Source: a virus
Taxonomy: Duplodnaviria > Heunggongvirae > Uroviricota > Caudoviricetes
Length of the DNA: 25,810 nucleotides
Strand: one strand, 5' to 3'
IMG/VR virus record: IMGVR_UViG_2548876964_000006
Location: 1 to 25,810 of that record
Shown: in pieces, positions 23,447-25,810 of the stretch
Position numbering within the stretch: position 1 is the first letter of the stretch
How the letters are laid out: every line of letters begins with the position of its first letter
Program-made: the position numbers and the translations under genes
The notes under the pieces: generated by a model
Told to the model about the DNA's origin: nothing
Database searches by the model: none
The model's input: the letters and a program-made list of their open reading frames with translations, nothing else

Positions 23447-24120
23447 TGGCACCAACAATTTATCACCGTATCGACGGTACCAAATACAGGAATATCTGGG
23501 TTGTTGGTGATCTGCATGGTTGCTACACCAGACTGATGTCCGAACTCCATCGTGTGGATTTTGACCCGGCGCAGGATTTACTGATATCGGTCGGCGACCT
23601 TATCGATCGCGGTACTGAAAATGTCGAATGTCTGGAACTATTGCAGATGCCCTGGTTCAGGGCAGTGATGGGGAACCATGAGCGGCTGATGATTGATGCG
23701 TTAAGTCCTGATGGCAACGTGAATAACTGGCTAATGAATGGCGGACAATGGTTCTTCATGCTGGACACTGATCAGGAAATATTAGCCAGGGCGCTGGTGG
23801 AGCTGGTAAAGCGTCTGCCCTATATCATTGAGTTGAACACCGGGCAAGAAACTATCGTTATAGCCCATGCCGACTATCCGGATAATGAATACCAATTCGG
23901 TAAGGAGGTGCCGCTTTTCAACGTTGTCTGGGCGCGCGAGCGTATCAGTGATTCGATGGATGATATTGGTGGCGAAATTTCGGGCGCAGATCGTTTTATC
24001 TTTGGTCACACTCCGGTGAAAAGCCCGAAGACATTCTGGAATCAGCAGTATATCGACACTGGTGCCGTATTTTGCGGAAACCTGACATTGATGAAAGTGA
24101 AAGGTGATGGTGCAGCATGA
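23443..24120 (+). CDS. serine/threonine protein phosphatase, lambda-PPase/calcineurin-like family
   Basis: GDLHG, GDLIDRG and GNHE metallophosphoesterase motifs; start overlaps the upstream stop. P1 encodes a comparable Ppp. Confidence 0.75.
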
Positions 24121-24818
24121 AGATTGCTTTAGTTCTTCGCTCTGGTGGTGACTATAACGCTTCCGATGTGCAGTGGCTGGTTAATCAACTGCCAAAAGGC
24201 TATGAAATTATTTGCCTGACAGACCTGAAGCGTTTACATGTACCTGGCGTCAAAGTTGTCCCATTGATCAACCAGTGGCAAAAGTGCCGTGGCTGGTGGG
24301 CGAAAATCGAGTTGTTCCGACCGGATATAACCGATGATCTGTTCTATCTGGATTTGGACACGGTTATTGCCGGTGATATACGCCCAATCCTTGAGAATCC
24401 ACCAACCTGCTTCACCATGCTTAGGGATTTTTACCATCCACAATATCGTGGTAGCGGTGCCCTGTGGATACCAAATAGTGTAAAAGCACATATCTGGAGT
24501 TCATTCTGGCAAGATCCGGAAGGTTGGATTGCTCGTTGTGTCACTACTGAGTGCTGGGGTGATCAGGGATTCTTACGGAAGGTTATGGGCGATGATACAC
24601 CAGCATTTCAGGATCTGTATCCAGGATGGTTTGTAAGTTACAAGGCCGATGTTGTGGAACCTGGTTCAAAATATGCGAGCGCGCGTTACTCCAGGGGGAA
24701 TGGGGCATTACCAAAGGACTGCCGAATAATCTTTTTCCACGGCAAACCGCGGCCTCGCGAAGTGTCAGAGGATTGGCTTCCCCTCATTAGCTCGTTTTTT
24801 GAGCGAGAATCAGAATAA
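24117..24818 (+). CDS. GT-A fold glycosyltransferase-like protein (GT8-like)
   Basis: [13 protein letters not shown] (DxD), GDQGFL and [10 protein letters not shown] resemble the GT8 DxD / DQxxLN / HxxGxxKPW motifs. Confidence 0.5.
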
Positions 24819-24819
24819 T

Positions 24820-24849
24820 ATTGCTCTAATAATTCCATATTTTTAAAAC
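24820..24849 (+). promoter_or_regulatory. C1-operator-like site (ATTGCTCTAATAATTCC, 14/17) with -35 TTGCTC and -10 TAAAAC
   Basis: Third copy of the 30-bp promoter architecture; the predicted start site falls in the loop of the adjacent hairpin. Confidence 0.45.
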
Positions 24850-24874
24850 GTGATGTACACTCATCACGTTTTTT
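24845..24874. terminator. bidirectional terminator hairpin flanked by inverted operator-like copies
   Basis: AAAACGTGATG / CATCACGTTTT stem with A/T runs on both sides. Confidence 0.55.
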
Positions 24875-24885
24875 ATTAGAGCAAT
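24869..24885 (-). promoter_or_regulatory. inverted C1-operator-like site (ATTGCTCTAATAAAAAA on the minus strand, 14/17)
   Basis: Forms a symmetric pair with the site at 24820 around the hairpin. Confidence 0.4.
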
Positions 24886-24899
24886 CTACAAGGTGCACT

Positions 24900-25118
24900 A
24901 TGTGGCCATTCCGACGGAAATATCACTACTGGCTGATCGCCTTTGTTACGCCGACCGGCGGTATCAGGCATGTCATCACCAGGTATCGCAACAAGAGACT
25001 CACCTTAGCCAGAATTTTACAGGCTGCCATAGGTGAGGGACTGGATACAAATTGCGTAGTCCTTCCACCTTCATACTTAGGAAAAATGACCGAAGCACAA
25101 GCTAATACGGAACTTTGA
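24900..25118 (+). CDS. hypothetical small protein
   Basis: ATG after AAGGTG, immediately downstream of the operator and promoter. Confidence 0.45.
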   Translation: MWPFRRKYHYWLIAFVTPTGGIRHVITRYRNKRLTLARILQAAIGEGLDTNCVVLPPSYLGKMTEAQANTEL

Positions 25119-25119
25119 A

Positions 25120-25810
25120 ATGAGCACTTCAGCACAAAACCAATCAATCGAAAATGTTTCTATCCCTGATGTCCTGAATGCCGGTATCCCGGCCATTATC
25201 CAGAACATCCGAGCCGCGCAACGCCGCGTTAGTTGTGATGACCTCACAGCGCGTTTTTTTGATAATGCGGTTCAGTCAGCGGAGATGCTTCACGCACAGC
25301 TTATTGATGTTTATAACGCAGAAGCTGATAGCCATAACTCCCTGGTAGATGCAGCTGAAAATATGCAGTTGGATCTCGGTCTGAAGGGTAAAGAAATTGA
25401 AGAGCTTCAGCTGGAAATTGAACATTTGAAACGCCAGCAACAGGACGCGATCGAAGATGCGACGCATGACGCCAACCAGCGTGCTGATAATGCCGAACGT
25501 ATAAGCATTGAGCTGGAAACAAAACTCAATGAAATGACCGCGATGGTTGTGCTGCGGAACTCACAGATTTCAACTCTAAAATCTCAATATAAAGAGATCA
25601 TGAAACTTGATCCTTTTAACCTTGAGAAACGCTATAACAAAGCCAAAAGCGAGCGACAGGAACTGCGTAAGCAGATTGTCGACCTTAACCAACAGCTCAA
25701 AAAGGCTATTAAAGATGCAAGCGAGGCGCGCGTGGCATTTGCTAATAAAAAAGCAGAGGTTACCGAGCTGGTTAATGAAAACGCCAAATTTGCGACGCTC
25801 AAGAAGGAAA
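25120..25810 (+). CDS. hypothetical coiled-coil protein, 3'-truncated at window end; paralog of the gene at 2..823
   Basis: ATG 25120 opens a frame with no stop to the window end (translated by hand); the last 227 nt are identical to 25-251. Confidence 0.55.
   Translation, partial: MSTSAQNQSIENVSIPDVLNAGIPAIIQNIRAAQRRVSCDDLTARFFDNAVQSAEMLHAQLIDVYNAEADSHNSLVDAAENMQLDLGLKGKEIEELQLEIEHLKRQQQDAIEDATHDANQRADNAERISIELETKLNEMTAMVVLRNSQISTLKSQYKEIMKLDPFNLEKRYNKAKSERQELRKQIVDLNQQLKKAIKDASEARVAFANKKAEVTELVNENAKFATLKKE
25584..25810 (+). repeat. direct repeat copy, identical to 25..251
   Basis: 227/227 identity by direct comparison; the 25 bp immediately upstream share only about 12/25. Confidence 0.85.

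Follow-up and report, generated by a model that had tools for sequence, protein, structure and literature searches.

The window analyzed here, a stretch of 25,810 nucleotides (positions 1 to 25,810 of the IMG/VR virus record IMGVR_UViG_2548876964_000006), contains near its right-hand end a 66-bp intergenic element (24820-24885) between two genes of the plus strand. Upstream lies pmgQ (24117-24818), which the ORF list and the P1 annotation of the homologous stretch place as the last gene of the plus-strand unit pmgN-pmgO-pmgP-ppp-pmgQ; the element begins 1 base past its TAA stop codon (24816-24818) and ends 14 nt before the ATG at 24900 that opens pmgR, a 72-codon plus-strand ORF (24900-25118) also named from the P1 annotation. 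The plus-strand leader of pmgR (24886-24899) carries a ribosome-binding site, AAGGTG (24890-24895). The gene is essential, and its deletion yields unjoined heads and tails (PMC9024508); most of the PLSDB plasmid records in which it occurs leave it unannotated (tblastn matches with annotation 'none').

From left to right the element reads ATTGCTCTAATAA-TTCCATATTTTT-AAAACGTGATG-TACACT-CATCACGTTTT-TTATTAGAGCAAT and is built of two nested inverted repeats. The outer arms, ATTGCTCTAATAA at 24820-24832 and its partner at 24873-24885, form a 13-nt inverted repeat that is 100% complementary, with 40 nt between the arms. The inner arms, AAAACGTGATG (24845-24855) and CATCACGTTTT (24862-24872), form a perfect 11-bp stem closed by the 6-nt loop TACACT (24856-24861) and followed by T6 on the plus strand. 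This hairpin (24845-24872) has a predicted energy of -13.4 kcal/mol, and a 91-nt region around it folds at -26.9 kcal/mol (z = -7.6 against shuffled sequence). An earlier note on this DNA had drawn the hairpin at 24845-24874; the stem-loop it described is real, but the end was set 2 nt too far and took in part of the T-run.

The element is identical, base for base, to positions 82152-82217 of phage P1 (GenBank AF234172), where the record lists a 'monovalent C1-controlled operator OpmgRa' (formerly Op86a), a 'predicted sigma 70 promoter PpmgR' and OpmgRb (formerly Op86b), and says of OpmgRa that it 'controls expression of pmgR and pmgS'. The final 2.4 kb of the window shares 98% identity with phages P1 and P7 and 100% with the Escherichia coli plasmid NZ_CP013030.1, and judged by its sequence the window is a stretch of a P1-family phage-plasmid. 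Because the element is identical to this annotated stretch, its mirrored operators and embedded promoter are already known, annotated P1 features and not a new system; the two inverted, operator-like 17-mers that the earlier note had seen flanking the hairpin turn out to be the genuine P1 repressor operators Op86a and Op86b. Operator a (OpmgRa, ATTGCTCTAATAATTCC, 24820-24836, plus strand) is identical to P1 82152-82168 and operator b (OpmgRb, ATTGCTCTAATAAAAAA, 24869-24885, minus strand) to P1 82201-82217, both annotated as protein_bind 'phage repressor C1'. Sequence, flanking genes (pmgQ on the 5' side, pmgR-pmgS on the 3' side) and the orientation of both 17-mers agree with P1 throughout, and only our interpretation differs, in that the likely -10 is put in the hairpin loop (24856-24861) and not at 24844-24849.

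P1 carries 22 C1 operators, with the asymmetric 17-bp consensus ATTGCTCTAATAAATTT (PMC8546580). Operators a and b each match this consensus at 14 of 17 positions, with a perfect 13-nt core. Operator b departs from the consensus at positions 15-17, with AAA for TTT, at the very bases where the plus strand must have its T-run, and the same bases thus appear to serve both functions: the T-tract of the plus-strand terminator (TTTTTTATT, 24869-24877), invariant over alignment columns 51-58 in 24 sequences, also supplies operator b with its 3' flank (positions 9-17). Parallels within P1 include the bivalent operators Op72ab (ban) and Op99ab (c1), in which two inverted C1 17-mers likewise govern one promoter. 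There, the 17-mers overlap to give one incomplete palindrome of 28 bp, whereas operators a and b are separate 17-mers, 32 bp apart and annotated as monovalent, with a promoter core and a hairpin between them.

Operator matches recur across the window. Allowing up to 2 mismatches, the 13-mer was found six times against 0.85 expected, a count reached in none of 100 shuffles. By P1 coordinates the other matches correspond to Op88 (1403), Op94 (11411), a site before c4 (14714) and Op82 (21200). The match at 11411-11423 is Olpa/Op94, before lpa, and that at 21200-21212 is O26/Op82, on the minus strand between gene 26 and pmgL. The Op88/OpmgT module (1403-1475, ATTGCTCTAATAAATCT TGATTTTTAAAAC) has about 30 nt in common with the Op86a module, including TTGCTC-17-TAAAAC, and continues into a G+C-rich hairpin, CATGCCGC-AAGGC-GCGGCATG, that has no T-tract; the likeness suggests a duplicated operator-promoter cassette. 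The operator-like sequence at 14714 (TTTGCTCTAATAAATTG) is followed by Rfam matches to isrK (14805-14882) and C4 antisense RNA (14907-14994), so that 14714-14994 represents an immI-type c4-icd-ant immunity module, situated directly after pacB, where P1 has c1.

The c1 gene is absent from the window, and a 'phage repressor protein C1' is encoded about 18 kb downstream in the 100%-identical plasmid NZ_CP013030.1. Relative to P1 the window is a patchwork of the 82.9-85.2, 87.5-93.2 and 73.7-83.1 kb regions, joined via the c4-icd-ant module. Its positions 25-251 are identical to 25584-25810, a repeat of 227 bp inside pmgS, and bases 1-24 are the reverse complement of approximately 25304-25330. Plasmid NZ_CP013030.1 carries two directly repeated icd-ant modules 26.7 kb apart, with c1 just outside the segment between them, and the window looks like that segment closed into a circle, which could be an assembly cycle through the repeat or a genuinely excised circle.

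Conservation was assessed at two depths. When IMG/VR was scanned for pairs of operator cores separated by 25-55 nt, more than 119 matches came back, and every one was this same locus. A contig search with PmgR gave only two near-identical loci, and diversity was taken from a PmgR protein-cluster search combined with contig look-ups and from phage and plasmid collections, which supplied eight further, diverged lineages (PmgR 72-84% identical), nine with P1. In all nine, the element is exactly 66 nt long, and the 13-nt operator cores are near-invariant across 24 distinct sequences. The cooperative binding or looping that the earlier note raised for the paired operators may occur, and the fixed span is indirect evidence at most. 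Among 107 P1-type loci the loop was the least variable block, with 0.17 minor alleles per site; the arms had 0.6-1.2, and the inside of the element as a whole 0.2-1.2, far below the adjoining spacer past operator b (4.5). Within that spacer, positions 24886-24889, which separate operator b from the ribosome-binding site, were hypervariable among the P1-type loci, occurring as CTAC, CTAT, CCAT, ATAC, TTAC, CCAA and others. In lineages L131 and L133 (both at 1420-1485) the two operator copies have changed together, with GTTC in place of GCTC at position 5, and in L135 (1421-1486) the same change is found in operator a only; a repressor specificity that has shifted or relaxed may lie behind these substitutions.

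Intrinsic terminators consist of a G+C-containing stem-loop followed by a run of U, and bidirectional ones occur at convergent genes. Several features of the hairpin fit this description on the plus strand. The stem starts 27 nt past the pmgQ stop codon, at the 3' end of the upstream transcription unit, and in all lineages its plus-strand energy lies between -11.4 and -16.5 kcal/mol, with T5-T6 after it in each of them. Of the stem cells in the alignment, 96% were paired, compared with 41-58% in controls in which the 3' partner was slid by 1-3 columns, and RNAalifold recovered the same stem unaided. Three of the 11 stem pairs had changed on both sides (pair 31-48 from G-C to A-U, pair 34-45 from A-U to G-C, and pair 29-50 from A-U through G·U to G-C) and six of the 11 showed one-sided, G·U-compatible changes, counts that reflect few independent events because the sequences are related, which also means that shuffle controls overstate significance. 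In lineage L132 the stem is re-registered (CGGCATG/CATGCCG), with the hairpin and T6 still in place. P1-type singletons contained three A·C and three other mismatches in the stem, representing either some tolerated damage or sequencing errors. With intrinsic terminators in general the element shares a stem-loop and U-run just past a stop codon, and an A-run before the stem. The element departs from ordinary examples in that its terminator bases also serve a promoter and a repressor site.

Automated searches were less forthcoming. The hairpin went uncalled as a terminator in a consensus scan, probably because the program used the maximal 11-bp stem, which leaves only 4 T within the 8 nt that it examines; if the tail is taken to begin at the 7-bp G+C core, it reads TTTTTTAT. 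Rfam held no family for the element, its sole match being a chance one (E = 4). The P1 record lists no terminator feature in the 38 kb inspected, and since none is annotated anywhere in that region, the absence at this element is uninformative. A search of a paper library for Op86, for P1 start-site mapping, or for Term-seq or in vitro termination data found nothing relevant.

The earlier note had proposed a bidirectional terminator, a claim that the strand asymmetry of the hairpin contradicts. In minus-strand reading, the tail behind the stem is UUUU and then A5 in P1 (UUUU AAAAAUAUGG) and CUUC in other lineages, and in four lineages the stem falls to -5.8 kcal/mol with no U-tract. Among the seven diverged lineages that share the stem register, the non-Watson-Crick pairs on the plus strand comprised 11 G·U, no A·C and no others, and a G·U pair on the plus strand is an A·C mismatch on the minus strand. 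In addition, pmgQ, pmgR, pmgS, pap and all annotated neighbors lie on the plus strand, which leaves no reason to expect transcription converging on the element. A usable U-tract and conservation on the plus strand only, with no convergent gene, set it apart from bidirectional terminators. A palindromic protein-binding site (e.g., a LexA-type box) was rejected as an explanation of the inner repeat, because the half-sites of the repeat covary and contain G·U pairs, which are asymmetric in DNA. Plus-strand-specific pairing, the retained U-tract and the all-plus gene order together argue that the hairpin is selected as plus-strand RNA, and it looks like a conserved, one-way intrinsic terminator that ends the pmgN-pmgQ unit.

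Selection on plus-strand RNA would be equally expected of a conserved structure that is not mainly a terminator, such as a 3'-end stabilizer or processing site, and the evidence for selection at the RNA level favors the two to the same degree. One version of this account makes the element an RNase III target in which the outer operator arms pair too, giving a 24-bp bulged helix, and indeed the full 66 nt can fold as one long bulged helix (-26.9 kcal/mol); such a structure would separate the fates of the pmgQ and pmgR mRNAs. We consider this quite improbable. An invariant T6 directly past the stem is a hallmark of intrinsic termination that a stabilizer does not need, the outer arms are explained by the C1 consensus (the one covarying position within them changed where the operator motif itself changed), and a terminator would act during transcription, before the outer 3' arm had been made.

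For initiation at the element, there are two candidate promoters on the plus strand, both of which are weak. Candidate A (24821-24849) is the promoter implied by the earlier note and the PpmgR annotated in the P1 record: a -35 hexamer TTGCTC (24821-24826), a 17-nt spacer and a -10 hexamer TAAAAC (24844-24849), with an implied start at about 24856, in the loop. It matches the consensus at 8 of 12 positions, lacks the final T of the -10 and was not called by the consensus scan. Candidate B (24833-24861) combines TTCCAT (24833-24838), a weak -35 that matches at only two of six positions in P1, with a 17-nt spacer and the loop itself, TACACT (24856-24861), as -10, which implies a start at about 24867-24869, in the 3' arm or at the start of the T-run and under operator b. 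A promoter on the minus strand, reading from the TTGCTC of operator b, was rejected, as the hexamers 16-18 nt on (AGTGTA, GTGTAC) are not -10-like.

Conservation separates the two candidates. The loop hexamer conforms to TAnnnT in nine of nine lineages, occurring as TACACT, TATCAT or TATTAT. The -10 of candidate A is retained as TAAAAC in the Salmonella lineages but reads TGAAGC in JK004, L131 and L133 and TGCGGC in L132, the key second-position A being lost in all four, and natural P1-type variants have TGAAAC (three loci) or TAAAGC (five loci). A rough sigma-70 weight matrix ranked candidate B as the top site in all nine lineages (3.5-5.3), with its -35 at operator positions 14-20, and gave candidate A 1.9 in P1, at most 1.9 elsewhere and negative values in four lineages. 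The same matrix placed the Plpa, P1ban and Pdmt promoters where they are annotated, and 68 of the 25,779 plus-strand positions of the window scored as high as candidate B or higher. The geometry of candidate B also has a precedent in P1, at Olpa (Op94)/Plpa, where the -35 occupies operator positions 15-20 and the -10, TATTAT, positions 37-42, giving the same operator-to--10 distance as from operator a to the loop. At Plpa the asymmetric operator is single and its 3' end overlaps the -35, which is a good one (TTGCTA), and the spacer contains no hairpin; the element here has another operator, inverted, on the downstream side, and its spacer and initial transcribed region are filled by a terminator stem.

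The reading in which the hairpin is a bidirectional terminator and the promoter is exactly the annotated PpmgR, with TTGCTC as -35, TAAAAC as -10 and a start in the loop at about 24856, draws strength from several sources besides the record. Its geometry is that of the annotated P1ban (-35 at operator positions 2-7, -10 at positions 25-30), the TTGCTC-17-TAAAAC module appears again at Op88/OpmgT (window 1403), and TAAAAC is kept in the Salmonella lineages. Against this stand the poor match of TAAAAC, its loss in JK004, L131, L133, L132 and P1-type variants, its low or negative scores beside those of the loop, and the failure of bidirectionality on each of the points given above; we regard this reading as unlikely. 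The conserved TAnnnT in the loop, the spacing shared with Plpa and the loss of TAAAAC make a start near 24867-24869 likelier than one in the loop, and the comparison suggests that the loop hexamer is the likelier -10 and that PpmgR is annotated with its -10 in the wrong place. Of the earlier proposal of a repressor-controlled plus-strand promoter, its embedding within the 66 bp stands, but the start in the loop is doubtful and is probably about 12 nt off, as TAAAAC is not conserved. With either candidate the transcript would lack the 5' arm, so the terminator could not form in it. The central idea of the earlier note, that upstream transcripts would end here and repressor-controlled ones start inside the structure, is thereby kept, and the conserved hairpin and T-tract past pmgQ support it.

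More distant relatives show what the arrangement looks like with other operator sequences. The P1-like plasmid NZ_CP056338.1 of Citrobacter freundii (L129+L130) encodes a PmgR homologue of 35% identity and contains no P1-type operators. In their place it has a recurring, mostly intergenic motif, ACCATACTAATT (A[CA][CA]ATACTAATT), with 21 matches against 8.6 expected, and before the pmgR homologue two perfect mirrored copies of it enclose TATCAT, with the best promoter match, TTACAA-18-TATCAT, lying between the mirrored copies. The Pantoea plasmid NZ_CP034366.1 (L141+L142) has the recurring intergenic motif AGATACTAAAATA (11 matches against 2.4 expected), and a perfect 20-nt mirrored pair flanks TTTACA-17-GATATT, again upstream of a pmgR homologue. 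The Citrobacter, Pantoea and P1 motifs have a CTAA core in common, in the same register. The motifs of the two plasmids probably serve diverged C1-like repressors as operator sets.

Like the P1 element, both plasmids mirror their own recurring operator motif around a -10-like hexamer before the pmgR homologue, which favors the view that a real promoter lies between the two operators. Unlike the P1 element, their spans are shorter (44 and 56 bp compared with 66 bp), the promoter spacer contains operator a, and neither a hairpin nor a T-tract is found at the mirrored pair of NZ_CP056338.1 or NZ_CP034366.1. Mirrored pairs made of other motifs, with no hairpin, imply that the paired arrangement may be older than the P1 operator sequence, and the missing hairpin implies that the terminator would be an addition in the clade of P1, Salmonella and Cronobacter. 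A conserved helical phasing of the two operators was rejected: the CTAAT-to-CTAAT distances, counted by hand, are 49 bp in the P1 clade, 27 in Citrobacter and 31 in Pantoea, with no common phase.

These relatives also bear on a reading with no promoter inside the element, in which pmgR would be expressed by read-through from PpmgN or LPpmgL and the C1 operators would act in lysogens as roadblocks or in repressor-assisted termination. Both promoter candidates are weak in P1, as such a reading predicts, and operator b overlaps the T-tract, so that polymerase might be held up at the terminator by bound C1. The clear sigma-70-like promoters between the mirrored, hairpin-free operators of Citrobacter and Pantoea speak against it. 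The upstream promoters are themselves controlled by C1 (via Oppp and O26), which would leave a second roadblock largely redundant, and an essential gene would be starved of transcripts behind a conserved terminator that no promoter follows. Blocking pmgO, pmgP, ppp or pmgQ by CRISPRi is nonlethal and deletion of pmgR is lethal (PMC10695390), a weak argument, because CRISPRi knockdown of pmgR gave no phenotype either (PMC10695390), which makes the polarity data uninformative on an internal promoter. We hold a promoterless element to be very unlikely.

We think it likely that the 66 bp form the junction of two early transcription units, at which three signals overlap: operators, a plus-strand terminator and a promoter core. 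Within this explanation, the anatomy of the sequence, its identity to the annotated P1 operators, and its conservation, covariation and strand asymmetry are observed, and we infer C1 occupancy, termination activity, the choice of -10 hexamer and the exact start site. Op86a and Op86b, as inverted C1 operators, would bracket the promoter of pmgR-pmgS, and between them a plus-strand Rho-independent terminator (11-bp stem, 6-nt loop, U6) would end transcripts of the pmgN-pmgQ unit. The promoter core would be threaded through this terminator, with the 5' arm in the promoter spacer, the loop TACACT as the most likely -10, and the 3' arm and T-tract as the first stretch to be transcribed and as a part of operator b as well. 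RNAs begun inside the element would carry no 5' arm, would form no terminator and would read into pmgR. In a lysogen, C1 at operator a would cover the -35 and the upstream region and C1 at operator b the start site and first transcribed bases, so that with both operators occupied an essential head-completion gene would be locked twice over. A point against this explanation is that a terminator right before an essential morphogenetic gene would also cut late transcription from LPpmgL.

The comparison adds to the P1 annotation in that it corrects the 'bidirectional' reading of the hairpin, suggests that PpmgR has been given the wrong -10, and indicates that in P1-like elements of differing repressor specificities a mirrored operator pair guards an essential head-completion gene. 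The element offers a compact natural case in which a terminator, a promoter and two operators would use the same bases, and it may be of interest for the design of insulated, repressor-controlled units and for P1 vectors. As a broader and more tentative proposal, possible but short of probable, the mirrored operators around the pmgR promoter may represent an ancient, selected architecture of the P1 family, retained even where the repressors recognize other sequences, into which a clade-specific terminator was built with the -10 in its loop and its T-tract doubling as operator flank. In such a design the inverted repeat around the -10 might also make the promoter sensitive to supercoiling, through cruciform extrusion, or to read-through from upstream. 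If true, a single 66-bp element would stop incoming transcripts and start terminator-immune ones, locked by C1 on both sides.
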